Both the position numbers and the translations under genes were made by a program. This document shows positions 1 to 21,870 of a stretch of 64,000 bases of DNA, piece by piece. Each line of letters starts with the position of its first letter. Within the stretch, counting starts at the first letter, position 1. Source of the stretch: an uncultured Acidobacteriota bacterium (GTDB lineage: Bacteria; Actinomycetota; Acidimicrobiia; Spongiisociales; ZC4RG35); the NCBI GenBank assembly GCA_963789135.1, contig CAWBJJ010000008.1, positions 15,720-79,719 of the forward strand. The letters are read 5' to 3'. The notes beneath the pieces were generated by a model, which saw nothing but the letters and a program-made list of their open reading frames with translations, did not search any database and was not told the origin of the DNA.

Positions 1-2
1 AC

Positions 3-131
3 AACCTGCTCTCCAACGCGATCAAGTTCACCCCGACCGAGGGGCGGGTGCGCGTCGTACTCCGCACGGCCGGCCATTCCGCGGAGATCGACGTGATCGA
101 CAGCGGTGTCGGCATCGGCGAGGATCTTCCC
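3..131 (+). other. 3-prime fragment of a sensor histidine kinase (HATPase_c region), truncated at junction
   Basis: Frame 3 reads NLLSNAIKFTPTEGRVRVVLRTAGHSAEIDVIDSGVGIGEDLP (typical HATPase_c N/G1 boxes) then degenerates into Pro/Arg-rich nonsense until a stop at 422; window starts inside the gene. Confidence 0.5.
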
Positions 132-291
132 GGACATGGGTGTGGATGTGCACCACCACTTCCTCCCCCACCCCGGGCAACGCGGCCACCGCACGCGGGG
201 TCATCGTCACCTCGTAACCGACTCCACTCGCCTCGAGACAGACCAACTCACTGCGCTTGGAGACGAGAACCCCGCGCAGACGACCGATCAC
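121..291 (-). pseudogene. ruvA: Holliday junction helicase RuvA, N-terminal 57 aa only (truncated at junction)
   Basis: MIGRLRGVLVSKRSELVCLEASGVGYEVTMTPRAVAALPGVGEEVVVHIHTHVREDP matches RuvA domain I; after REDP the frame becomes Arg-rich nonsense and no other frame continues RuvA; start codon overlaps ruvC stop as in ruvCAB operons. Confidence 0.6.
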
Positions 292-770
292 CGGCTCATC
301 TCCAGGGGTGCGGCACGCAGGTGGCAGAGAGCGATAGCCAGGGCGTCGGCGGCGTCTGCCGGCTGTGGCGGCTCGGCGAGTCGCAGGAGGCGGGCCACCA
401 TTTGTTGGATCTGAGCCTTTGAAGCGGCTCCATCACCCGTGATCGCCGACTTCACCGCGGTCGGGACATACTCCGACACCGGAAGTCCGGCCTTGGCAGC
501 AGCGAGCATCGCCACTCCCGACGCCCTACCCACGGAGATCGCAGTCTGCAGGTTGCGATTGGTGAATACCGTCTCCAGGGCGACGACGTCGGGCTTCGCC
601 TCGGCGATGACCTGAGTCAGGCCGGCGAACAACTCTGCGAGACGATCGGACATTGCGGCCTCAGGATCGGTGCGGATCACGCCGGCCATGACGCCGACAG
701 GCGGATGACCGCCCTGAACGACGGCGTATCCCGTCGTAGACAGCCCGGGATCGATTCCCAACACGAACAT
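288..770 (-). CDS. ruvC: crossover junction endodeoxyribonuclease RuvC
   Basis: MFVLGIDPGLSTTGYAVV... RuvC N-terminal catalytic motif; ATG at 768-770 chosen over the longer 251-aa ORF whose first 91 aa are Arg/Gly-rich. Confidence 0.85.
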   Translation of the reverse strand: MFVLGIDPGLSTTGYAVVQGGHPPVGVMAGVIRTDPEAAMSDRLAELFAGLTQVIAEAKPDVVALETVFTNRNLQTAISVGRASGVAMLAAAKAGLPVSEYVPTAVKSAITGDGAASKAQIQQMVARLLRLAEPPQPADAADALAIALCHLRAAPLEMSR

Positions 771-821
771 ATGTTTGGTGAGAGTAGGCGACGCCTGGGC
801 CCAAAGCGCGACAATCCCGAG

Positions 822-1244
822 ATGGAACAACGACTCAGCTTGGTCACTCTCGGGGTGTCCGACCTCACAAGGGCCCGCAACTTCTACAAGGCATTGGGGT
901 GGGTCCCCGCCGCAAGCCCGAGCGACGACGTGGCCTTCTTCCAGGCCGGCGGAATGGTCATGGCTCTGTGGAGTCGTGCCGAGTTGGAGGCAGACAGCGG
1001 CGTTGTCGATGGCGGAGGTTGGGGTGGAGTGACACTGGCTCACAACGTCCGGTCGCCTTCAGAGGTGGACGGTGTGATCGAAGAGGCTCGTTCTGCCGGC
1101 GCCACGATCGCCCGTGAGCCCGCGGCGACGTTCTGGGGCGGCTACTCAGGTGTTTTCGTCGACCTCGACGGGCATCCCTGGGAGGTAGCGCACAATCCGG
1201 ACTGGCCCCTCGACGACGACGGCGCGGTTCGACTGCCGGGATAG
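822..1244 (+). CDS. VOC (glyoxalase/bleomycin-resistance) family protein
   Basis: MEQRLSLVTLGVSDLTRARNFYKALGW... glyoxalase-like fold signature; divergent from ruvC. Confidence 0.7.
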   Translation: MEQRLSLVTLGVSDLTRARNFYKALGWVPAASPSDDVAFFQAGGMVMALWSRAELEADSGVVDGGGWGGVTLAHNVRSPSEVDGVIEEARSAGATIAREPAATFWGGYSGVFVDLDGHPWEVAHNPDWPLDDDGAVRLPG

Positions 1245-1262
1245 TCACAATCCGGGCAAGAG

Positions 1263-1289
1263 AAAGGCGCCCCATCGAGGGGCGCCTTT
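1263..1289. terminator. bidirectional hairpin between convergent genes
   Basis: perfect 11-bp inverted repeat AAAGGCGCCCC-ATCGA-GGGGCGCCTTT between the VOC gene (+) and the GlsB gene (-). Confidence 0.5.
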
Positions 1290-1306
1290 CCGAGAGTGGT
1301 AGCGGG

Positions 1307-1564
1307 TCAGACCGTGCTTCGGTTGCCTACCGATCGATAGGCCAGCAAGGCGATGATCGCACCGACCACGGATCCGATGATCCCGGCGGTGGTCACGTCC
1401 CACTGCCCGTCGAACAGCAGGTTCCCGAGGAAACCACCCACCAACGAACCGACGAGGCCCAACAGCATCGTGCCGAGGATCCCCATCGGGTCGGAACCGG
1501 GCACCAACGCCCTTGCGATCAGCCCGGCGATGAGCCCGACCAGCAGCCAAATCAGAATGCCCAT
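1307..1564 (-). CDS. GlsB/YeaQ/YmgE family stress-response membrane protein
   Basis: 85 aa, Gly-rich two-helix membrane protein MGILIWLLVGLIAGLIARALVPG... Confidence 0.75.
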   Translation of the reverse strand: MGILIWLLVGLIAGLIARALVPGSDPMGILGTMLLGLVGSLVGGFLGNLLFDGQWDVTTAGIIGSVVGAIIALLAYRSVGNRSTV

Positions 1565-1633
1565 GTCTTACCTCCTGGATACGTCTAGGACGTCGATTGG
1601 ATACCCGTAGGAGGCGACGCCGAAAACAAGGAT

Positions 1634-2383
1634 TCAGACTTCTTCGAGGACGCGTTCCATGACATCGTCGTCGATGTCGTAGTTGGAAAACACCGCCTGG
1701 ACGTCGTCGAGATCGTCGAGAGCGTCGATCAGGCGCAGCAGGCGGCGGGCATCGGACTCCCCCACCGGGACGGTGGTCGACGGGAGTTGGGTGACGTCCG
1801 CCGAGCCGATCTCGACGCCCGCCGTCTCCATTGCGGTGCGCACCGCCTGGAGATCGCCTGGATTGGTGACCACCTCGAACCATTGCTCTCCCACGTCCCG
1901 CACGTCGTCGGCGCCGGCGTCGAGCGCCGCCAGCATCACCTCGTCCTCACCACCCTTGGCCTCGATCAGGCCCTTCTGGGTGAAGAGGTAACCCACCGAA
2001 CCCGGTTCGCCAAGGCTGCCACCGGCCCGGGTGAAGGTGGACCGAACGTCGGACGCCGCTCGGTTGCGATTGTCCGTGAGGATCTGCACGTACAGGGCGA
2101 CACCACCAGGGCCGTATCCTTCGTACCAAATCTCCTCGTAGTGAGCGCCCTCGACTTCGCCTGTTCCCCGCTTCACGGCCCGGTCGATGTTGTCGTTGGG
2201 CATTGATGCGGCTTTCGCCTTGAAGATGGCGGTGGCCAGTGTGGGATTGAACTCGGGGTTGCCGCCGCCCTCCCGCGCCGCGATCTCGATGGCCTTGGCC
2301 AGTTTCCCGAAGAGCTTGCCCCGGGCCGCGTCCTGACGGCCCTTGCGGTGCTTGATGTTCGCCCACTTCGAGTGCCCTGACAT
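1634..2383 (-). CDS. yebC: YebC/PmpR family DNA-binding transcriptional regulator
   Basis: MSGHSKWANIKHRKGRQDAARGKLFGKLAKAI... canonical YebC N-terminus; upstream of ruvC as in actinobacteria. Confidence 0.9.
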   Translation of the reverse strand: MSGHSKWANIKHRKGRQDAARGKLFGKLAKAIEIAAREGGGNPEFNPTLATAIFKAKAASMPNDNIDRAVKRGTGEVEGAHYEEIWYEGYGPGGVALYVQILTDNRNRAASDVRSTFTRAGGSLGEPGSVGYLFTQKGLIEAKGGEDEVMLAALDAGADDVRDVGEQWFEVVTNPGDLQAVRTAMETAGVEIGSADVTQLPSTTVPVGESDARRLLRLIDALDDLDDVQAVFSNYDIDDDVMERVLEEV

Positions 2384-2392
2384 CTCAGCTCC

Positions 2393-2956
2393 TCAGATCA
2401 GGTCCAACAGCATCCGGTGGATCCGGCTGTCGCCGGTCAGTTCGGGATGGAACGACGTGGCGAGGATCCGGTCCTGGCGAACCATCACCGGGTGCTCGCC
2501 GACGCTCGACATGACCTCGACTTCGGAGCCGACCTTCTCCACCCACGGAGCCCGGATGAACACCGCATGGAAGGGCCCGTCGAGAGTGTCGATCTCCAGG
2601 TCCGCCTCGAAGGAGTCGTTCTGGCGGCCAAATGCATTGCGCCGGACCACCACGTCGAGAGCGCCGAGCAGAGGCTGATCGCCGTCGGTGACCGCACCTG
2701 CGAGGAAGATCATCCCCGCACAGGTCCCGTAGACCGGCAGACCGCCGTCGATTGACTCCCGCAGAGGGTCGAGGAGCCCGAATCGGACCGCCATCTTCCC
2801 GATGGTCGTCGACTCCCCGCCAGGAATGACCAGCGCGTCGATCGCGTCGATCTGTTCCGGTTTCTTCACCGCGAGCGCGCCTACCCCCAGGGAATCGAGG
2901 ATCGTCAGATGCTCGCGAACGTCCCCTTGCAAGGCGAGGACGCCGACGGTGCTCAT
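2393..2956 (-). CDS. pdxT: pyridoxal 5-phosphate synthase glutaminase subunit PdxT
   Basis: VGVLALQGDVREH...GTCAGMIFLA class I glutamine amidotransferase, PdxT-type. Confidence 0.9.
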   Translation of the reverse strand: MSTVGVLALQGDVREHLTILDSLGVGALAVKKPEQIDAIDALVIPGGESTTIGKMAVRFGLLDPLRESIDGGLPVYGTCAGMIFLAGAVTDGDQPLLGALDVVVRRNAFGRQNDSFEADLEIDTLDGPFHAVFIRAPWVEKVGSEVEVMSSVGEHPVMVRQDRILATSFHPELTGDSRIHRMLLDLI

Positions 2957-2957
2957 G

Positions 2958-3866
2958 TCACCATCCCCGGCCGGCGAGACGCTCCGAATCGGTCAACGTT
3001 CCCAGTTCTATCCCGGGCATGGCCTCGCCCAGGCCCCGGGAAACCTTGGCCACAACCTCGGGCTCGTTCCAGAAGGTGGTGGCCTCGACGATGGCCCGCG
3101 CGTACGCATCGGGGTTCGAGCTCTTGAAGATCCCCGAGCCGACGAAAACCCCGTCGACTCCGAGCGACATCATCAGGGCGGCGTCAGCAGGGGTGGCAAT
3201 GCCACCGGCCGCGAAGTTGACAACCGGGAGCTTGCCCAGAGATGCGACCTCGCGGACCAGCTCGAAGGGAGCCTGATGATCCCGGGCCGCAGACATCAGT
3301 TGCGCCTCGTCGAGCTGGGTCAGCGTCCGCATCTCATTGGTCACCGTGCGCATGTGGCGCACTGCTTCCACGACGTTCCCGGTGCCGGCCTCACCCTTGG
3401 TCCGGATCATGGCGGCTCCTTCACCGATGCGGCGCAGAGCCTCGCCCAGGTTGCGGGCGCCACAGACGAATGGGGTAGTGAAGGCCCACTTGTCGACGTG
3501 ATGATCTTCGTCGGCAGGGGTGAGCACCTCGGACTCGTCGATGTAGTCCACACCCAGAGACTGGAGGACCGCAGCCTCGGTGAAATGCCCGATCCGGCAC
3601 TTGGCCATGACCGGGATGGTGACCGCAGCCTGGATCTCTTCGATCTTGGTGGGATCGGCCATGCGGGCGACTCCCCCATCGCGACGTATGTCGGCGGGAA
3701 CTCGCTCCAAGGCCATCACCGCCACCGCGCCGGCTTCCTCGGCGATCTTCGCCTCTGATGCGGTGACCACATCCATGATTACCCCGCCCTTGAGCATTTC
3801 GGCGAGGCCTCTCTTCACACGATCTGTACCGGTTTCCACGGAAGGCTCCATTGAGGGGAAAACCAA
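2958..3866 (-). CDS. pdxS: pyridoxal 5-phosphate synthase lyase subunit PdxS
   Basis: [18 protein letters not shown]...; true start may be the internal MEPSV Met. Confidence 0.9.
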
Positions 3867-3890
3867 TGGTACAGCCTCGGCGTTGATGAT

Positions 3891-4926
3891 CTAAGAGGCT
3901 GTTTCGGCGTAAAGGGAGCGATATGAGGCCCCGACCACGCTCCAGTCGTAGCGACTCGCGATCTCCCGGCCTACTGCAGTGAGCCTCGACCGCTCCGCAG
4001 AGTCACGAAGCAGCTCGACAAGGGCTCTGGCCAGGGCATCGCTGTCACCGACCGGGAAGAATCGGGCCGCGCCCTCCGCGACCGCGACGAACGCGTCCAG
4101 GTTCGAGGAGACGACCGCGGCCCCGGCGGCCATCGCCTCGAGGAGCACGATCCCGAACGACTCGCCGCCGAGTTGTGGGGCCACGAAAACAGACGACGAG
4201 TTGAGGACCTGCGCCTTCTTGCGGTCGTTCACCCTCCCCAGCCACTCGGCGCGGTCGTCGTCGCGGTGGGCACCCATGACGGTCAGGACCGCGTCTGGCA
4301 CCTTGGCGACCACGTCGGCCCAGGCGGTGAGCAGCACCTCGAGGCCCTTGCGCGGCTCGTCGCGCCCAAGAAACGACACCCGGTACCGATCCCGCTCGAC
4401 GTCGACGCGCATCGCCTCCACATCGAGGCCGTTGGGGATGATCCGGGCTTCGAGCCGGGACGGAAGGGGCGACGCCGCGGTCTGGCTGACTGCGGTCACG
4501 GCGGCGCAATTGCCCATCACCTTGGTCAACAGCCCCCCACCCAGTCGATAGGCGAGCCTGGCTGCAGAGCCGGGGGCAGCATGGAATGTCGCCACGACCG
4601 GTGGCCCCGAGTGATTGGCAAAGAGCGACACCAGGGGCATCAGGGGCTCGTGAACGTGGAGGACGTCGAGCTCGCCGGCCACCTCGCGAAGGCGGGATCG
4701 CGATCTGGGGTCGATCGAGATCGGGACCTTGGAGCCGTTCCCGGGAATGGAGACACTCCCACCGAGGTCGATGCCGTCCACGCCTTCCGGCAGGCCCGGG
4801 GCCGAGCACCATGGGGTGATCTCCCTGCCCGCTCAAGTATCGGGCGAGTCCCAGGACCTGGGACTGGACGCCGCCCGGCACGGAGAGGTCATAGGGGCTG
4901 ACCAGCCCGATGCGCATCCCGCTCAT
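3891..4926 (-). pseudogene. pimA: phosphatidylinositol alpha-mannosyltransferase PimA (GT4), interrupted by a single-base frameshift
   Basis: N-terminus MSGMRIGLVSPYDLSVPGGVQSQVLGLARYL in frame of 4926; remainder (…LHVHEPL…GGESFGIVLLEAMAAG…) in frame of 3891..4781; shift maps to GGCCCCGGGCC run near 4792-4805; one extra G restores ...MVLGPGLPEGVDGIDLGG. Confidence 0.7.
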
Positions 4927-5798
4927 TTCCGGTCAGAGGGCCAGTTGGGCTGGACGAGGTGCCATTGCCGCGGAGCCTCGGCGATCAACTTCTCGAGGCG
5001 GTAGGCCAGCTCCTGGGTCATCGCCTGGACCTTTTCGGAGCGGGTCCCGGACTCCGGGATCGGTATTGGGGGCGTGATCACCACCCGGTGCCCCTGCCCC
5101 TCGAAATACGAGCCGACAGGGAGCAATGGAGCGCCGCTCCTGATCGCCAGCGTTGCCGGCCCCGGCGGGAGGGTGGTCCGCTCCCCGAAGAACTCCACTT
5201 CGACGCCACGACGCTTGAGATCACGGTCGGAGAGAAGGGCCACTGCCTTGTTCTCCTCCAGCGCCGTCTCCAGCTTGCGCATGACCTCGGTGCTCCCGGT
5301 GGCGAGCACGATCTCGATCCCGAACGCGGCCCGCATCTCGGTGAACCAGTTGGTGATCAGCTCGTTGGACAGGCGTTCGGCTACAGCGACCACCGGGGCT
5401 CCGGCTGTGACCGAAACCGGCGCAGCCGCCTCCCAATTCCCCATGTGTGGCAACGCAAAGATCATCCCCTTGCCCCTGTCGCGGGCGCCGGTGATCTCCT
5501 CCAGCCCGTCCACGGTGGTATTGCGCCGGATTGCGGCCACCCGGTCGGGGCGGGCCCAGAAGACCTCCGCCCAATAGCGCCCGTAGGACTCCATGACCGA
5601 GCGGGCGGCGGCCGCGGTGTCAGCGCCCTCCCCGAGCACCCGGCCCATGTGACGCTGCGTCATCTGACGGCGACCGGAGGCGAACGTGTGCCAGACCCGA
5701 CCGAAGGCCCTTCCCAATGCCAGCGCCACCGATTGGGGGAGCAGGCCGACCAGCCCCACGCCGGCCCGGAGGGCCAGATATCCCAGGAAGTCCTTCAC
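4923..5798 (-). CDS. phosphatidylinositol mannoside acyltransferase (LpxL/HtrB-family lysophospholipid acyltransferase)
   Basis: 291 aa lipid A biosynthesis acyltransferase fold; position between pgsA1 and pimA conserved in actinobacteria; GTG start overlaps pgsA stop by 1 nt. Confidence 0.8.
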   Translation of the reverse strand: MKDFLGYLALRAGVGLVGLLPQSVALALGRAFGRVWHTFASGRRQMTQRHMGRVLGEGADTAAAARSVMESYGRYWAEVFWARPDRVAAIRRNTTVDGLEEITGARDRGKGMIFALPHMGNWEAAAPVSVTAGAPVVAVAERLSNELITNWFTEMRAAFGIEIVLATGSTEVMRKLETALEENKAVALLSDRDLKRRGVEVEFFGERTTLPPGPATLAIRSGAPLLPVGSYFEGQGHRVVITPPIPIPESGTRSEKVQAMTQELAYRLEKLIAEAPRQWHLVQPNWPSDRK

Positions 5799-6382
5799 TA
5801 GAAGGAACGGTAGGTGCGGATGAACCGCGAGAAAGCGGTTAGCCAGACCAACACCACGAACACCCAGAGCATCGGCTCCACGAAGCCGAGCATCAGCCCG
5901 ACGGAGAAGACCAGCACTCGCTCCGCCCGGCCCATGAGACCGCTCCTCCCGTCGAACCCCTCTATTTCTGCCCGTGCCCTCATGTAGGGGACCAGCATTG
6001 CGCCTCCTATTGCAAGCACGATCAGGAGCAGCTCGCGGGGCTGACCGGCGCGTAGGAAGCCCAGGCCGGCGAAGGCCGCTATCTCACCCATGCGATCGAA
6101 CGCCGAGTCGAGGAAGGCTCCGCGGGGCGAGACCTGGCCCGAGGCACGGGCCACAGAGCCGTCGAGGCCGTCGAGGAGCGCACCGAGGAGCACCACTGCA
6201 GCCCCCGATCGCATGAGGCCGGACGCGATCATCACGGACCCCGTGATCACCACGGCGAGGCCGAGGAAGGTGATCATGGTTGGGGTCACACCAATCGAGG
6301 CCAGAGAGTGGCCGATCGGCTCCATAAACCGGGTGACGCGGGGGCGAACCCGCAGGTCGATCACGACTATCCAAAGTAGCAC
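5798..6382 (-). CDS. pgsA: CDP-alcohol phosphatidyltransferase (phosphatidylinositol phosphate synthase, PgsA1-like)
   Basis: ...GLDGSVARASGQVSPRGAFLDSAFDRMGE... CDP-OH transferase motif D-G-x2-A-R-x8-G-x3-D-x3-D; multi-TM. Confidence 0.8.
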   Translation of the reverse strand: MLLWIVVIDLRVRPRVTRFMEPIGHSLASIGVTPTMITFLGLAVVITGSVMIASGLMRSGAAVVLLGALLDGLDGSVARASGQVSPRGAFLDSAFDRMGEIAAFAGLGFLRAGQPRELLLIVLAIGGAMLVPYMRARAEIEGFDGRSGLMGRAERVLVFSVGLMLGFVEPMLWVFVVLVWLTAFSRFIRTYRSF

Positions 6383-6447
6383 GCGCCCGGGAACCCTGAT
6401 GCTGGCCGGCGTTAGGATCGGGGCATCGCCCCGGCAAAGGAGGTCAT

Positions 6448-8499
6448 TTGGAACCCGAGAAAGTTCGGAATGTCGCGCTGGTCGGCCACGGCGGAAGCGG
6501 TAAGACCACCCTCGCCGAGGCGCTCCTCTTCATCGGTGGCGCCACCACCAGACGCGGCTCAGTGGAACAGGGCACGACCGTTTTCGACCACGAGCCCGAG
6601 GAGATCGAGCGAACGATCTCGCTCGGGCTGGCGGTGGCCTCCCTCGAGTGGCAGGGCCACACCATCAATCTCATCGACACACCCGGATCCAGCGACTTCT
6701 CGGGTGATGCCAGGGCCACGCTCCGCGCCGCTGACCTCGCCCTATTCGTGGTCTCCGGCGTCGACGGGATCGAGGTCCAGACCGAGCAGTTGTGGAGGAT
6801 CGCAGGCGAGGAGTCGATCCCCCGCGCAGTTGTGGTCACCAAGCTCGACCGCGACCGATCTTCCTTCGAGAGGACTCTCGACCAGCTTCGTCAGGCCTTC
6901 GGCAAGGCGATTGCCCCGATTCAGGTCCCGATCGGGGCCGAGGATGGCCTATCTGGCGTGGTGCGGGTCGCCAGCGAGCGCGCCTACACCTATTCCGGCG
7001 ACGGCAAGGCCGGAACCGAGATCCCGCTCCCGGCGGAGGTCGAAGACCGGGTACACGCCGCGCACACCGCGCTCGTAGAGACAGTTGTCGAGACCGACGA
7101 CGCGATGATGGAGGCGTATTTCGAGGGCACCGAGCCCTCCCGGGAGGACATCGTGGCGACGGTGCACCGCGGGATCCTCGACGGGACCCTGCACCCGGTG
7201 ATCGTCACCTCGGCAGAGAAGCTGATCGGCATCGACCTCCTCGCCGAATTCATCGTCGACTACGGCCCCAACCCCCTGGAGCGGCCGATCCCGCGGCTCT
7301 CGTCGGGGGACAGCTTCGCCCCCGCCGTCGATGGGCCTGTGCTCGCATATGTCTTCAAGACCGTGTCCGACCCATTCGTGGGCAGGATCTCGATGTTCCG
7401 CATCTTCTCGGGGACGATCAAGGCCGATCAGGAGCTCGAGTTGGCCCGAGGGGGAAAGGTCCGGCTCCACAACCTGTTCCTGCTCCAGGGCAAGGACCAT
7501 CACGATGCGGCCGACCTCCCCGCCGGTGGGATCGGCGCGGTGGCCAAGGTGGAGAACGTGATGGTTGGCGACACGATGCGATCGCATGGCCTCAACGCCA
7601 CCGTCGAACCGGTCACCTATCCCAAGCCGGTGGCCGAGGTGGCGATTACACCGGTCTCTCATCACGACGAGGAAAAGCTGTCGACCGCCCTGCACCGAAT
7701 CGAAGAGGAAGACCCCACCCTGCGCATCGAAAGGCGGCCCGAGACCGGGGAGACGATCCTCGCCGGGCTCGGCGACAGCCACCTCGACGTGACTCTGGCC
7801 CGCATCCACCGCAAGTTCGGGGTCGAGGTCGCCTCGTCGCTGCCGGTGATCCCCTATCGGGAGACGATCACAACGTCGGGTGAGGCCGAGGGCAAGCACA
7901 AGAAGCAGAGCGGCGGCCGGGGCCAGTTCGGGGTGGCTTCGGTCAAGTTCGCCCCGTTGCCCAGAGGGTCCGGCTACGAGTACATCGATTCGATCAAGGG
8001 TGGCTCGATTCCCCGCCAGTTCATCCCGGCCGTGGACAAGGGCATCCAGGAGTCGCTGCGTCGGGGGATCCTGGCCGGTTACCCGGTGATCGACATCTCG
8101 GCCGAGGTCTACGACGGCAAGTTCCACTCGGTCGACTCCGACGAGATGTCGTTCCGAATGGCTGGCATCCAGGCGGTCAAGGCCGCCGCGATGAAACTGC
8201 GCCCAATCCTCCTCGAGCCCGTGATGAGGGTGACGGTCACGGTCCCCGAGGAGCATCTCGGCGACGTGATGGGTGACATCAACTCCAAGCGGGGCCGGGT
8301 GCTGGGCATGGAGGGCGAGGGAAACCTCAGATCGGTGGTCGCCGAGGTTCCTATGGCCGAGATCCAGCAGTACGCGGCCGAACTGCGGTCTTTGACCTCA
8401 GGACGGGGTAACTTCGAAGTCGAATTCGATCACTACGCAGAAGTGCCCCACAATGAGGCGCAGAATGTGATCGCCGCCGCTCAGTCGGCCGAAACGTAA
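6448..8499 (+). CDS. elongation factor G-like protein (EF-G2 paralog)
   Basis: 683 aa; G domain VALVGHGGSGKTTLAEALL...DTPGSSDF...TKLD; EF-G domains II-V; not adjacent to rpsL/rpsG/tuf. Confidence 0.85.
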   Translation: MEPEKVRNVALVGHGGSGKTTLAEALLFIGGATTRRGSVEQGTTVFDHEPEEIERTISLGLAVASLEWQGHTINLIDTPGSSDFSGDARATLRAADLALFVVSGVDGIEVQTEQLWRIAGEESIPRAVVVTKLDRDRSSFERTLDQLRQAFGKAIAPIQVPIGAEDGLSGVVRVASERAYTYSGDGKAGTEIPLPAEVEDRVHAAHTALVETVVETDDAMMEAYFEGTEPSREDIVATVHRGILDGTLHPVIVTSAEKLIGIDLLAEFIVDYGPNPLERPIPRLSSGDSFAPAVDGPVLAYVFKTVSDPFVGRISMFRIFSGTIKADQELELARGGKVRLHNLFLLQGKDHHDAADLPAGGIGAVAKVENVMVGDTMRSHGLNATVEPVTYPKPVAEVAITPVSHHDEEKLSTALHRIEEEDPTLRIERRPETGETILAGLGDSHLDVTLARIHRKFGVEVASSLPVIPYRETITTSGEAEGKHKKQSGGRGQFGVASVKFAPLPRGSGYEYIDSIKGGSIPRQFIPAVDKGIQESLRRGILAGYPVIDISAEVYDGKFHSVDSDEMSFRMAGIQAVKAAAMKLRPILLEPVMRVTVTVPEEHLGDVMGDINSKRGRVLGMEGEGNLRSVVAEVPMAEIQQYAAELRSLTSGRGNFEVEFDHYAEVPHNEAQNVIAAAQSAET

Positions 8500-8512
8500 G
8501 CGAGGCCGGGTC

Positions 8513-9796
8513 ATGGGCGAGGTAACAGTCAGGTACGGGGACAAGGAGATCACGCTCCCCACGATCACCGGCACCTTCGGGGACTCGGCAGTCGACATCT
8601 CCAAACTGCGCGCCGAGCTGGGGATCGCGACCATTGACAGCGGCTTCGCCAACACCGCCGAGGGCTCCTCCGGAGTGAGTTTCGTCGGTGGCGAAGAGGG
8701 CGTCCTGTCGTATCGGGGCTATCCGATCGAGCAACTGGCGGAGAAGGCCACCTTCATGGAGGTCTCCTACCTGCTCCAGTACGGCGAGCTCCCCACCAAG
8801 GATCAGTACGAGGAGTACGTCGAGTCCATCACCCGCCACACCCTGCTTCGGGAGGACATGAAGTACCTGTTCGAGGCTTTCCCCCACTCGGCGCACCCGA
8901 TGCAGATCCTGGCCGCGGGGACGTCCGCCCTGGCCAGCTACTACCCGGACGCCCTCGACCCGACGGACGAGGCGTCGGTGGACATCAGCGCCCGGCGCCT
9001 TGTCGCCAAGACCCCGACCATGATCGCCTGGTCATACAAGTACCGGGTGCACCAGCCCTACATCTACCCGGACAACGACCTCGACTACGCCTCCAGCTTC
9101 CTCAAGATGATGTTCTCGGTGCCGGCCGAGGAATACAACCCCGATCCCGTGGTCGCCAAAGTCCTCAACCTGCTTCTCATCCTCCACGCCGATCATGGTC
9201 AGAACTGCTCGACCTCGGCGGTCCGTTTGGTCGGGTCGAGTCAGGCCAACATGTTCAGCTCAGTCGCGGCTGGGATTCATGCGCTCTCCGGGCCACTGCA
9301 TGGTGGCGCCAACGAGGAGGTGCTCAACATGCTGGAGACGATCGTGGCCGACGGCGGAGACGTCTCCAAGTACGTGGCCCGGGCCAAGGACCGGAACGAC
9401 CCGTTCCGGCTGATGGGTTTCGGGCATCGGGTGTACAAGAATTTCGACCCACGGGCCCGGATCATCAAGCAGGCGAGCGACGACGTGCTGGACGCTCTTG
9501 GGGTGCAGGACCCCGCGCTCGAGGTCGCCATGGAGTTGGAGTCCCTGGCCCGGTCCGACGATTACTTCATCTCACGCAAGCTCTACCCGAACGTGGACTT
9601 CTACTCCGGGATCATCTACCGGGCAATCGGCTTCCCCAAGGACACCTTCACGGTTCTGTTCGCGTTGGGACGGCTCCCGGGATGGATCGCACAATGGCGG
9701 GAGCTGATGGCAAACCCCAAAACCCGGATCTTCAGGCCGCGCCAGCTGTATGTCGGTCCCGAGGTCCGGGACTTCGTCGAGATGCAAGACCGGTAG
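8513..9796 (+). CDS. gltA: citrate synthase
   Basis: 427 aa; ...LILHADHGQNCSTSAVRLVGSSQANMF...GFGHRVYKNFDPRA citrate synthase active-site motifs. Confidence 0.9.
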   Translation: MGEVTVRYGDKEITLPTITGTFGDSAVDISKLRAELGIATIDSGFANTAEGSSGVSFVGGEEGVLSYRGYPIEQLAEKATFMEVSYLLQYGELPTKDQYEEYVESITRHTLLREDMKYLFEAFPHSAHPMQILAAGTSALASYYPDALDPTDEASVDISARRLVAKTPTMIAWSYKYRVHQPYIYPDNDLDYASSFLKMMFSVPAEEYNPDPVVAKVLNLLLILHADHGQNCSTSAVRLVGSSQANMFSSVAAGIHALSGPLHGGANEEVLNMLETIVADGGDVSKYVARAKDRNDPFRLMGFGHRVYKNFDPRARIIKQASDDVLDALGVQDPALEVAMELESLARSDDYFISRKLYPNVDFYSGIIYRAIGFPKDTFTVLFALGRLPGWIAQWRELMANPKTRIFRPRQLYVGPEVRDFVEMQDR

Positions 9797-10288
9797 CTAA
9801 AGCCCGGGCACCGCTTCCACGTACGGCTGCTCGGCCACCGCACCGGTGACGGCGTCGACGACGACCAGGGCGCGCTGATCCGGAGGCTCGCTGGCGGAGT
9901 AGAGGACCACACTCCACCGGGGCACCGAGCGGATGCCTTTGAAGGTCACAGCCGCCGACGCGTGACCGACCGGAAAGTCGACCGCCGATCCGGCGATGCT
10001 CAAAGCCGCGTGCTCGTCGACGTTCAAAGGCCAGGATGAGGCGAACTGCCAGATGGAGAGTGCGACGAAGCCGATGGCAGGGATCCAGCCCCCGTCGATC
10101 AGGAGCAAGGAAAGGGCGGCACCGACGAGGTACACCCAACCTGAGATGCGGCGCCGGGTGGGGGACGGAAAGCGGTAAGGGCCAACCTGATTGGAGTCGA
10201 GCTCGTCCTCGATGGCGACCGAGTCGGCCAGGTCGCGCTCGATGAAGATCCCCTCCCGGTCGACGCGCCGGGGGTCTGGCTCGCTCAT
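9797..10288 (-). CDS. hypothetical membrane protein
   Basis: 163 aa, two predicted TM helices; ATGA overlap with thrS stop suggests co-transcription. Confidence 0.5.
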   Translation of the reverse strand: MSEPDPRRVDREGIFIERDLADSVAIEDELDSNQVGPYRFPSPTRRRISGWVYLVGAALSLLLIDGGWIPAIGFVALSIWQFASSWPLNVDEHAALSIAGSAVDFPVGHASAAVTFKGIRSVPRWSVVLYSASEPPDQRALVVVDAVTGAVAEQPYVEAVPGL

Positions 10289-12219
10289 TTCGCCGGCCGG
10301 GCCGCCAGATCGACGAGCCGGTTGGTGGCCTCGATGACGTCGACCCCACGAGCGTCCCGCTCCTCCCCGTAGAGCCGCAGGCCGACAGTCGAATCCTGGA
10401 TGTCCTGATCGCCGACGACCACCACCGCCGGGTGCTTCTGGCTGAGCGCACGGCGGATCTTCTCGCCAACCGTCTCCTCGCTCTCATCGATTTCGACGCG
10501 GAGGCCGGCATCTGTCATCCGGGCCCCCACCGACAGGGCGTACTCGAGATGACGGTCTGCCACCGGGATCACCGACACCTGGACCGGCGCCAGCCATGCC
10601 GGGAATGCGCCGGCGTAATGCTCGACGAGCACGCCCATGAACCGCTCCAGCGAGCCGGCCTTGGCACAGTGGATCATGTACGGGCGCTCTGAAGCGTTGC
10701 CCGAGGCGGTGTACTCCAGATCGAACCGCTCGGGCAGGGTGAAGTCGAGCTGGATCGTCGAGAGCTGCCAGCGGCGCCCGATGGCGTCCTTGACGTGCAA
10801 GTCGATCTTGGGCCCATAGAACGCCCCTTCGCCCTCCGCCACCCGGTAGGCGACTCCTCGGGCCTTCAGGGAGTCCTCCAGAGCCTTCTGGCTGAACTCC
10901 CAGCGTGACTGCTCTCCCACCGACTTCTCGGGCTGGGTGCTGAGGTCGGCGTCGAACTCGGTGAACCCGAAGTCGCGGAGCCAGGTGAGGACGAAATCGA
11001 GGTGGAGGTCGAGCTCGGACGCGAGTTGGCCCTCGGTGCAGAACGTGTGCGAGTCGTCCTGGGTGAAGCCCCTGGCCCGCAACAGGCCGTGGACGACGCC
11101 TGACTTCTCGTACCGATAGACGCTGCCCAGCTCGGAGAGCCGGATCGGGAGATCGCGATAGGAGCGTCCCCGGCTCTTGTAGATGAGGACGTGAAATGGG
11201 CAGTTCATCGGCTTCACCCGGTACTCATGACCGTGGTCCAGCTCCATGCCCGGGTACATGTTCTCGGCGTAGTAGTCGAGGTGGCCCGAGGTGTGCCACA
11301 GGTCGGCTTTGGCGAGATGAGGGGTGAAGACGAAGTCGAAACCGAACCGCTCATGGAGGGCACGGCTGTGGTCTTCGATCGTCTTGCGGAGCATCCCACC
11401 TTTGGGATGCCAGATCACCAACCCCGATCCGAGGTCGGAGGGAAAGCTGAAGAGGTCGAGGTCGGGCCCGAGGCGGCGATGATCGCGCTTCTCGGCCTCC
11501 TCGATGCGTGCCAGATGCTCTTCCAGCTGGGCAGGGGTCGGCCAGGCCGTCCCGTAGATCCGCTGCAGCTGGTCACGGCTCTCGTCTCCCCGCCAGTAGG
11601 CACCGGAGCTACGCAGGAGCCTGACGGCGCGGATCTTCCCCGTGCTCGGCAGGTGAGGTCCCCTACAGAGGTCGACGAAGTCGAGATTTCGATAGACCGT
11701 CACGTCGTCGCCCCCCGCCACCTGGTCGGGATCGACGCTCTCGATTATCTCCCTCTTGAAGGGATGGCTTGCGAACAGGTCGAGGGCCTGCTCACGATTC
11801 ATCGCTTCTCGAACGAATGGCTGGTCGGCGGCGATGATCTCGCGCATCCGGGCCTCGATCTGCTCCAGGTCCTCGGGAGTGAACGGGCGGTCGACTTTGA
11901 AGTCGTAGTAGAAGCCGTCTTCGATGGCGGGACCGATGGCGAACGTGGAGCCATCGAACAAGCCGAGAACGGCCTGGGCCAGGACGTGGGCAGACGAGTG
12001 GCGGAGGACGTCGAGCCCTTCGGGGGAATCGAGGGTGATCACCGCGAATTCACCGTCGTCTTCGATGGGACGGGCCAAATCGATCAATTGCCCATTGAGT
12101 TTTGCCGCCACCGCGGCACGCGCCAGCCCGGGGCCGATCGAGGCGGCGACCTCGCTCGCGGTCACCCCTTCGGGGTGCTCCACGGCCTTCCCATCCGGAT
12201 AATGAAGCTCTACTGGCAC
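10285..12219 (-). CDS. thrS: threonine--tRNA ligase
   Basis: TGS domain, class II aaRS motifs, anticodon-binding domain; listed ORF begins with TTG at 12294 but GTG at 12217-12219 (VPVELHYPDGKAVE) fits ThrS N-terminus. Confidence 0.9.
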   Translation of the reverse strand: MPVELHYPDGKAVEHPEGVTASEVAASIGPGLARAAVAAKLNGQLIDLARPIEDDGEFAVITLDSPEGLDVLRHSSAHVLAQAVLGLFDGSTFAIGPAIEDGFYYDFKVDRPFTPEDLEQIEARMREIIAADQPFVREAMNREQALDLFASHPFKREIIESVDPDQVAGGDDVTVYRNLDFVDLCRGPHLPSTGKIRAVRLLRSSGAYWRGDESRDQLQRIYGTAWPTPAQLEEHLARIEEAEKRDHRRLGPDLDLFSFPSDLGSGLVIWHPKGGMLRKTIEDHSRALHERFGFDFVFTPHLAKADLWHTSGHLDYYAENMYPGMELDHGHEYRVKPMNCPFHVLIYKSRGRSYRDLPIRLSELGSVYRYEKSGVVHGLLRARGFTQDDSHTFCTEGQLASELDLHLDFVLTWLRDFGFTEFDADLSTQPEKSVGEQSRWEFSQKALEDSLKARGVAYRVAEGEGAFYGPKIDLHVKDAIGRRWQLSTIQLDFTLPERFDLEYTASGNASERPYMIHCAKAGSLERFMGVLVEHYAGAFPAWLAPVQVSVIPVADRHLEYALSVGARMTDAGLRVEIDESEETVGEKIRRALSQKHPAVVVVGDQDIQDSTVGLRLYGEERDARGVDVIEATNRLVDLAARPAK

Positions 12220-12310: not shown

Positions 12311-13141
12311 ATGGATGCACGAGAGCTGGTCACGAGCCTCAACCTGAATGGGACCGTCCGAGAGCTTTCGTCCGGAGCCAACAAGCTGTTTCGGCTCCTC
12401 GAGACCGAGAACGCGAGCACGATCGTCAAGGTTTACCCGGTCGCATCCCGGGAGCGTCGTGAGCGCCACGCCCTCGAAGCCCTGAGCGCGGCGCCCTCGG
12501 TGCCCCGCATCCTCGGCCATGGAGTCGCGGGCGAGCAGGCCTGGCTCCAGATGACCGACGGTGGCCATTGGAATCTCTCCAGCCTCCCCAAGAACATCGA
12601 TGCCGTGCAGGCATCCGGTGTCGCTTTGCGTGCCATCCACACTTCTGGAGCCCAGATCACGAACCTGGCTGCCGGGATCGACGCCGATTACGTGCTCAGC
12701 CACTATCGGTCGACGATCGAGCGGCTGGGCCGCTACCGCCGTCGCTTCGGCATGGAGCAGGTAGTGCTCGACAAGGCGCTCGAGATGGAGCCACCACTGG
12801 CCACGACACCGGTGCCGGCGCATACCAAGCCCATGCTCTCCAAGTTCGTCATCGACGAGGAGGGCAATGTGACCATCGTCGACTGGGAGTGGGCAACGCT
12901 GGCCCCTTCGGAGTGGGACCTGACCCTCACGGTCTGGCAACTCGCCCGCAGCATCGGGGAGGACGCGGCTGCAGCCTTCCGTACCGGCTACGGGGCGGAA
13001 TTGCCCGAGAGCCGCTACCGCCCCTGGGTCGCCTATCACTCGGCAATGATGATGCTCGAGGCTGCCGAGGTGCGAGAGGGCAGGCTGGGAAGCCTGCAGT
13101 ACCTGGTTGACGACCTCACCGAGGCCGTCATCGGCACCTGA
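12311..13141 (+). CDS. aminoglycoside phosphotransferase (APH) family / protein-kinase-like fold protein
   Basis: ...VTIVDWEWATLAPSEWDLTLTVW... APH-type catalytic loop. Confidence 0.7.
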   Translation: MDARELVTSLNLNGTVRELSSGANKLFRLLETENASTIVKVYPVASRERRERHALEALSAAPSVPRILGHGVAGEQAWLQMTDGGHWNLSSLPKNIDAVQASGVALRAIHTSGAQITNLAAGIDADYVLSHYRSTIERLGRYRRRFGMEQVVLDKALEMEPPLATTPVPAHTKPMLSKFVIDEEGNVTIVDWEWATLAPSEWDLTLTVWQLARSIGEDAAAAFRTGYGAELPESRYRPWVAYHSAMMMLEAAEVREGRLGSLQYLVDDLTEAVIGT

Positions 13142-19178: not shown

Positions 19179-19256
19179 TGGTGGGCGATACTGGACTTGA
19201 ACCAGTGACCTCTCGCGTGTGAGGCGAGCGCTCTAGCCGGGCTGAGCTAATCGCCC
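19179..19256 (-). tRNA. tRNA-Val (anticodon CAC), CCA encoded
   Basis: minus-strand cloverleaf GGGCGAT..CTCGC-CTCACAC-GCGAG..ACTGG-TTCAAGT-CCAGT-ATCGCCC-A-CCA. Confidence 0.85.
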
Positions 19257-21416: not shown

Positions 21417-21601
21417 CGTCGTCGCTCCTATCTCAGTGGCGAAGTTGGTATGTCACCGGAGAGTAGCCCTCATGCCGAGGGCGATTTTGGCTGCCTTGCT
21501 CGGTCTAGATCCCCTGATAGGCCCCCTAGGCCCTGCAACATTCGTCAATTGCAACCTCCGAGAATCAAGAAACCCCCTGTGTTACCAGGGGGTTTCTCTT
21601 G

Positions 21602-21676
21602 TGGGCCCTACTGGACTTGAACCAGTGACCTCTTGCGTGTCGAGCAAGCGCTCTAGCCAGGCTGAGCTAAGGGCCC
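21602..21676 (-). tRNA. tRNA-Val (anticodon GAC)
   Basis: GGGCCCT..CTTGC-TCGACAC-GCAAG..ACTGG-TTCAAGT-CCAGT-AGGGCCC-A. Confidence 0.85.
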
Positions 21677-21691
21677 GTGTTCCCTCCTCAG

Positions 21692-21762
21692 AGGCGACGA
21701 CCGGAATCGAACCGGTGTGACGGGTTTTGCAGACCCGCGCCTAACCACTCGGCCACGTCGCC
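21692..21762 (-). tRNA. tRNA-Cys (anticodon GCA)
   Basis: GGCGACG..CGGGT-CTGCAAA-ACCCG..ACCGG-TTCGATT-CCGGT-CGTCGCC-U (U73 discriminator typical of tRNA-Cys). Confidence 0.85.
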
Positions 21763-21796
21763 GGTACCGGACGACTCGACCTCGGTCCGTCGTCGG

Positions 21797-21870
21797 AGCG
21801 GAAGACGGGATTCGAACCCGCGACCTCAACCTTGGCAAGGTTGCGCTCTAGCCAACTGAGCTACTTCCGC
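21797..21870 (-). tRNA. tRNA-Gly (anticodon GCC)
   Basis: GCGGAAG..CAACC-TTGCCAA-GGTTG..GCGGG-TTCGAAT-CCCGT-CTTCCGC-U. Confidence 0.85.

Follow-up and report, generated by a model that had tools for sequence, protein, structure and literature searches.

Inter-genome chimeric contigs and chimeras at contig tips are found in metagenome assemblies, and they are the type of error that GUNC and similar tools are built to detect. Of these tools, GUNC is cited in PMC12313526. The window analyzed here, by which we mean the whole stretch of 64,000 nucleotides whose first lines are given above, resembles such contigs in three respects: sequences of unrelated taxa meet with no homology between them, they do so at the very edge of the sequence, and close relatives retain the wild-type gene order. 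It differs from them in the size of the foreign piece, which at only 124 nt is too short for composition- or marker-based chimera detectors; only the fact that both sides are recognizable gene fragments brought it to light. In all likelihood the join arose as an artifact of sequencing or assembly and is neither a biological deletion of ruvAB nor another biological feature. The left end of the window is made up as follows:

Positions 1 to 124 (reading frame from 3), plus strand: HATPase_c fragment from the middle of the domain, derived from a PAS-PAS-HisKA-HATPase_c sensor kinase of Nocardioidaceae type.
Positions 124 to 125, strand not applicable: junction, joined bluntly, the inferred parents having 0-1 nt in common.
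Positions 125 to 291, minus strand: 5' part of an Acidimicrobiia ruvA, codons 1-56, comprising most of the RuvA_N OB-fold domain and stopping after ...HTHVRED.
Positions 288 to 770, minus strand: intact ruvC, directly upstream of ruvA and from the same Acidimicrobiia genome (Pfam RuvC 1-148/148, E 1.5e-47).

The first-pass annotation had described a truncated ruvA abutting a histidine-kinase fragment, and Pfam matches to HATPase_c and RuvA_N bear out that two truncated, convergent genes meet near base 125. The plus strand translates from 3 to 131 as NLLSNAIKFTPTEGRVRVVLRTAGHSAEIDVIDSGVGIGEDLP, beyond which only proline- and glycine-rich nonsense is encoded, and its Pfam match covers HATPase_c positions 12-52 of 111 (E 7.6e-8). 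The kinase fragment spans the N box to the G1 box (...DNLLSNAIKFTP...SAEIDVIDSGVGIGE-D) and is cut twice, on the left by the window edge and on the right by the join, with 41 codons left. Neither the F and G2 boxes of HATPase_c nor a HisKA phospho-acceptor domain was found in the window, and the sensor kinase is incomplete. From N box to G1 box the fragment resembles the PAS-PAS-HisKA-HATPase_c kinases of the Nocardioidaceae (Nocardioides scoriae, Marmoricola sp. Leaf446, MET0839432.1), with 81-88% amino acid and 82-88% nucleotide identity. In contrast to this family, it comprises only the 41 codons and lacks the invariant continuation E(E/D)P-D(A/Q)LFERLFR...PGAGLGLTI.

On the minus strand, translation from position 291 gives MIGRLRGVLVSKRSELVCLEASGVGYEVTMTPRAVAALPGVGEEVVVHIHTHVREDP and nonsense afterwards, with 291-121 reading MIGRLRGV...HIHTHVREDP. 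Known RuvA proteins carry the Pfam domains RuvA_N, HHH_5 and RuvA_C, and codons 1-56 of the window agree with these in encoding a good RuvA_N domain, the OB-fold (PF01330 positions 1-55 of 61, E 6.7e-17). Residues 1-56 were also the only part of the RuvA from locus L001 that tblastn aligned to the window. Unlike full RuvA, the window does not encode the HhH domain II or the C-terminal RuvB-binding domain III, both of which are present in the relatives L082 and L083. Their absence results from the change to foreign DNA at the join and is not evidence for a degenerate gene. As had been noted before, neither ruvA nor the kinase gene continues in any reading frame, judging from the translations of all frames. 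The rest of ruvA as well as ruvB, queA, tgt, apt and relA were looked for in the whole window and none were found. The earlier remark that ruvB is missing from the window is thus correct, but it is uninformative because the sequence ends 124 nt beyond the join.

Bases from 125 onward are assigned to an Acidimicrobiia genome. The RuvC encoded next to the truncated gene is up to 85% identical to those of Acidimicrobiia MAGs among the GTDB species representatives, while matches in a large protein collection reached 100% (P0002), 97% (P0122, JGI) and 91% (P0003). The identical protein P0002 is encoded on a contig of 125,785 nt from NCBI and ENA. Positions 125-9981 of the window are collinear with L083 and L082 at 83-86% nucleotide identity (85.6% over 8.7 kb to L083), and positions 125-1580 are collinear with the JGI contig L084 at 89.5% over 1.46 kb. 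The genes near ruvC are pdxS, pdxT, yebC and a gene for a Transgly_assoc membrane protein, all on the minus strand, together with a glyoxalase-family gene on the plus strand. With the exception of a variable slot between yebC and ruvC, this layout agrees with that of Acidimicrobiia relatives, and as in these, ruvA of the window has its canonical place next to ruvC, downstream of pdxS-pdxT-yebC. In L082 and L083 the order is ruvC-ruvA(189 aa)-ruvB-queA-tgt-yajC-secD/F-(apt)-relA, and in L001 it is ruvC-ruvA-ruvB-queA-tgt followed by apt and relA, with secD/F not identified in the latter. The closest readable relative is L084, with a RuvC 97% identical to that of the window and the same glyoxalase neighbor. 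Its ruvA reads ...CAC GTC CGG GAA GAC GAG ATC AGC CTC TAC GGG TTC... (HVREDEISLYGF...) and stays open to codon 97, where the contig ends.

Several further features were seen in these sequences. The yebC-ruvC slot (window 790-1300; L083 9084-9929; L082 8775-9900; L084 729-1202) differs among close relatives. Between the Transgly_assoc gene and ruvC, a glyoxalase/VOC gene (PF00903) divergent from ruvC is found in the window (822-1244, plus strand) and in L084, while the slot holds a DUF222-HNH endonuclease gene in L083 and unannotated ORFs in L082. The ruvC and ruvA genes overlap by 4 bases (288-291), the TGA stop of ruvC (290-288) and the GTG start of ruvA (291-289) being fused as GTGA, and a single base (2957) lies between the end of pdxS (2958) and the start of pdxT (2956). 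Both arrangements are typical of translational coupling and are kept in the relatives. All tRNA genes of the window lie on the minus strand, with tRNA-Val(CAC) alone at 19179-19256 and three closely spaced genes, Val(GAC)-Cys(GCA)-Gly(GCC), at 21601-21870; besides these four, no Rfam family reached the gathering score within the window. In distant Acidimicrobiales a convergent sensor kinase and an OmpR-type response regulator are inserted after ruvB, between ruvB and yajC (L063 12226-14888; L046 about 5392-5511; L059 about 12661-12780), an arrangement absent from closer relatives.

For the kinase side, a word-indexed protein search with the 43-residue fragment returned a single match, P0001, which is a 43-aa gene fragment on the ENA contig L081; such a search is too insensitive with a short query for its lack of further matches to count as a negative. 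At the DNA level, bases 1-124 match the kinase gene of L081 at 88% identity, that of L086 at 85.5% and that of L085 at 82.6%. The L081 kinase is frameshifted; a stitched version was used as protein query and the best 120 matches were examined. These 120 matches constitute one PAS-PAS-HisKA-HATPase_c family, and all named members among them are Nocardioides, Marmoricola or Propionibacteriales, including N. scoriae (88% identical to the stitched kinase) and Marmoricola sp. Leaf446 (89%). The window fragment itself shares 86% amino acid identity with P0133 and 84% with several other members of the family, and up to 36 of its 41 residues are identical in members of the 90% cluster of MET0839432.1, whose NCBI title is 'MAG: PAS domain S-box protein [Marmoricola sp.]'. 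As an unbiased control, an exhaustive HMMER search of 1.84 billion representatives was carried out with the fragment, and only P0260 (81%) exceeded 63% identity. This protein is a frameshifted member of the same Nocardioidaceae kinase family.

The genomic context of these kinases is conserved as well. In L085 and L086 the order is atpD-atpC-DUF2550-adenosyltransferase-murA-STAS-methylmalonyl-CoA-mutase-kinase, and L081 follows it without an annotated DUF2550; nucS lies downstream of the kinase in L081 and L086, while the L085 contig stops before this point. The three kinase loci have a GC content of 69-71%, compared with 65% for the window. Similarly, GC3 amounts to 37/40 (92.5%) in the fragment and 92-95% in the Nocardioidaceae kinases versus 80% in the genes of the window (binomial p=0.03). 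The close family matches and the GC3 together identify the fragment as Nocardioidaceae DNA (class Actinomycetes) on an Acidimicrobiia genome, both classes being Actinomycetota, and bases 1-124 are accordingly attributed, on sequence similarity, to a histidine-kinase gene of the Nocardioides/Marmoricola type. The best database kinase is 88% identical to the fragment and no identical sequence was among the matches; when JGI metagenome contigs were scanned for exact copies of a 28-mer (97-124) and a 38-mer (3-40), each pattern gave 0 matches.

A separate observation concerns the quality of the kinase records. In L081 (ENA contig_39123, 8900-10350) several frameshifts split the kinase gene into small called genes, and P0260 is affected likewise. 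The frameshifts in both look like the indel error of long-read assemblies rather than pseudogenes, and such frameshift-broken kinase fragments become representatives in protein collections.

The position of the junction was derived from alignments on both sides. When the window was compared by blastn with the ruvC loci of 80 Acidimicrobiia, position 125 was the end point of more than 25 independent alignments, and the alignments to the three closest relatives (L082, L083 and L084) all begin there. The kinase alignments stop at 124 for L081 and L086, while the L085 alignment reaches 132 through mismatches only. Ungapped identities on either side of the junction were as follows:

Window 291 to 125 against Acidimicrobiia ruvA (L084, L083, L082): 86-89%.
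Window 124 to 1 against the continuation of Acidimicrobiia ruvA: 25%.
Window 1-124 against Nocardioidaceae kinase DNA: 84-86% (88% to L081).
Window 125-291 against the continuation of the Nocardioidaceae kinase: 26-27%.

At the join, the kinase DNA of all three loci continues as GA(A/G) GA(C/T) CCN GAC, as in GGC GAG GAA GAC CCT GAC in L086 and GGT GAG GAG GAT CCC GAC in L085. At the same site the window reads GGC GAG GA (join) T CTT CCC GGA C, and here TCTTCCCGGAC is the reverse complement of the ruvA sequence GTC CGG GAA GA. On the protein level, the kinase family invariably continues after GIG with (E/D/A/V)(E/D)(D/E/Q/N)P-D(A/Q)LFERLFR, and the Leu found at the 'EDLP' position of the window occurs in 0/120 of the best 120 family matches. 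On the ruvA strand the window reads ...CAT GTC CGG GAA GAT (join) CCT CGC CGA TGC, while the ruvA genes of relatives proceed at this point as GA[C] GAG ATC/ATG AGC (E57). Of the 57 RuvA residues previously taken as correct, those of codons 1-56 stand. Codon 57 is CCT (Pro) in the window but GAG in the relatives and is therefore not native ruvA.

Taken from relatives that are 83-89% identical, these comparisons place the junction between 124 and 125, with 0-1 nt probably shared by the parents. The ruvA-derived part would end at 125; had the parental Asp codon been GAT instead of the GAC of the relatives, it would end at 124. It is the comparison of native ruvA GAG ATC AGC with native kinase GA(A/G) GA(C/T) CCN that yields the 0-1 shared nt. 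The 12-nt microhomology at 120-131 reported in the first-pass annotation does not hold up, as ruvA homology ends at 125 and kinase homology at 124. It appeared because each gene had been translated a few codons into the sequence of the other, which shows how two frames read through a chimeric join can mimic microhomology. The locus is similar to the junctions of microhomology-mediated end joining or deletion in that two truncated genes abut without filler; in contrast to these, its parents share 0-1 nt with no multi-nucleotide stretch and come from different replicons.

A search for adapter or linker sequence (TruSeq, Nextera, ONT) at the join gave no match, and neither filler nor a run of N or a spacer was present. 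No mobile-element gene or repeat adjoins the join within the window. The GATC at 123-126, which the join divides into GA and TC, was considered as a restriction-ligation scar and rejected as coincidence, given that the ruvA of L084 has a GATC 5 nt further on (GAC GAG ATC) and that only 1/3 of the kinase relatives has GATC at this site.

The join between 124 and 125 is very probably an artifactual chimera of the DNA of two organisms, situated at the end of an Acidimicrobiia contig. The blunt inter-class join, its distance of 124 nt from the edge and the wild-type ruvA of a near-identical relative are together read as a chimeric artifact, and a sharp, non-homologous join fits a chimera formed by ligation or assembly. 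Such an artifact had been offered earlier as an alternative, and it is now favored by the different taxonomic origin and composition of the two sides, as seen in assembly or library chimeras. About 124 nt of a kinase gene of the Nocardioides/Marmoricola type would have become attached bluntly to an Acidimicrobiia contig that stops inside ruvA. The source may have been a chimeric template or read, formed for example when a short and a long fragment were ligated in library preparation. This template or read would have extended past the point where the Acidimicrobiia contig truly ends, and the assembler would have retained the protruding part as a contig tip, the start of the window presumably being that contig end. 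This would be the most likely route, given how library preparation and assemblers generally behave. Under this explanation ruvA and ruvB would not have been deleted, and the remaining part of ruvA as well as ruvB would sit on another contig. Both taxa were found in assemblies with neighboring ENA analysis accessions (ERZ25039469, ERZ25039555, ERZ25039556 and ERZ25039594), which makes their co-occurrence in the source sample plausible; as part of the same explanation, the two parents would be co-occurring soil bacteria.

The different classes of the two sides and a blunt join that lacks filler, with 0-1 nt common to the parents, would also be expected if the record consisted of concatenated bin contigs, a contaminating Nocardioidaceae contig ending at 124 and the Acidimicrobiia contig starting at 125, with no molecule or assembler ever having joined them. 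MAG bins are often contaminated. Nevertheless, such a record boundary is improbable, since the window would have to start 124 nt before the contig boundary by chance, and a join so near the edge, if unrelated to a sequence end, would have a chance of about 0.2-0.4%. The missing run of N or spacer argues in the same direction, as does the RuvC-bearing contig, which with its 125,785 nt could account for the whole window alone. A real and recent inter-class transfer, on the other hand, would look no different from the chimera within the window. Nocardioidaceae DNA would then have been end-joined into an Acidimicrobiia ruvA, inactivating it and possibly ruvB, and the assembly would have broken just inside the insert. 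The seamless sequence without adapter is consistent with such an event, and so is the good conservation of the in-frame fragment, as expected of a recent transfer; where strains differ at a true insertion, an assembly could also break close to the junction. We nevertheless consider this very improbable: a core recombination gene is a priori seldom the target of an insertion from another class, ruvA is intact in the closest relative L084 as far as its contig extends, and there is no mobile-element gene or repeat beside the join in the window. Furthermore, the join lies at the position expected of a tip artifact and nothing positive sets a transfer apart from a chimera.

The first-pass annotation had also suggested a microhomology-mediated deletion or rearrangement that destroyed ruvA and ruvB, which within one genome would have joined a kinase gene to ruvA with the loss of ruvB. 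Some grounds for this exist in the three distant Acidimicrobiales L063, L046 and L059 (RuvC ~52% identical), which have a convergent kinase and response regulator right after ruvB, and a local 1.7-kb deletion could in principle produce the geometry of the window. A local deletion of this kind, joining ruvA to a kinase convergent with ruvB, was rejected, because the kinases of these three loci are only 47-60% identical to the fragment versus 81-88% for the Nocardioidaceae family and because queA, not a kinase, follows ruvB in the closest relatives. In addition, the shared sequence amounts to 0-1 nt and not 12, and the GC3 of the fragment is unlike that of the host genes. A deletion within one genome would call for flanks from the same replicon, a shared stretch of several nucleotides and ancestral neighbors, and none of these was found. 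The kinase family is located between MM_CoA mutase and nucS, while ruvA is followed by ruvB-queA-tgt-yajC-secDF-apt-relA in the closest relatives. With flanks from different classes, and with genes that are not neighbors in the close relatives of either lineage, a deletion or rearrangement of this kind is hardly credible.

If the join were real, it would represent a rare inter-class capture of DNA disrupting Holliday-junction resolution, and a true inter-class transfer would make this organism a natural ruvA-null, possibly ruvB-null, uncultured Acidimicrobiia lineage; nothing here favors a real join over an artifact. The artifactual chimera, in contrast, amounts to a quality flag, according to which the Acidimicrobiia genome should not be credited with the first 124 bases. 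Inferences on gene content or pathways should likewise disregard the apparent loss of ruvA and ruvB, and on these data neither gene should be recorded as absent from the organism.
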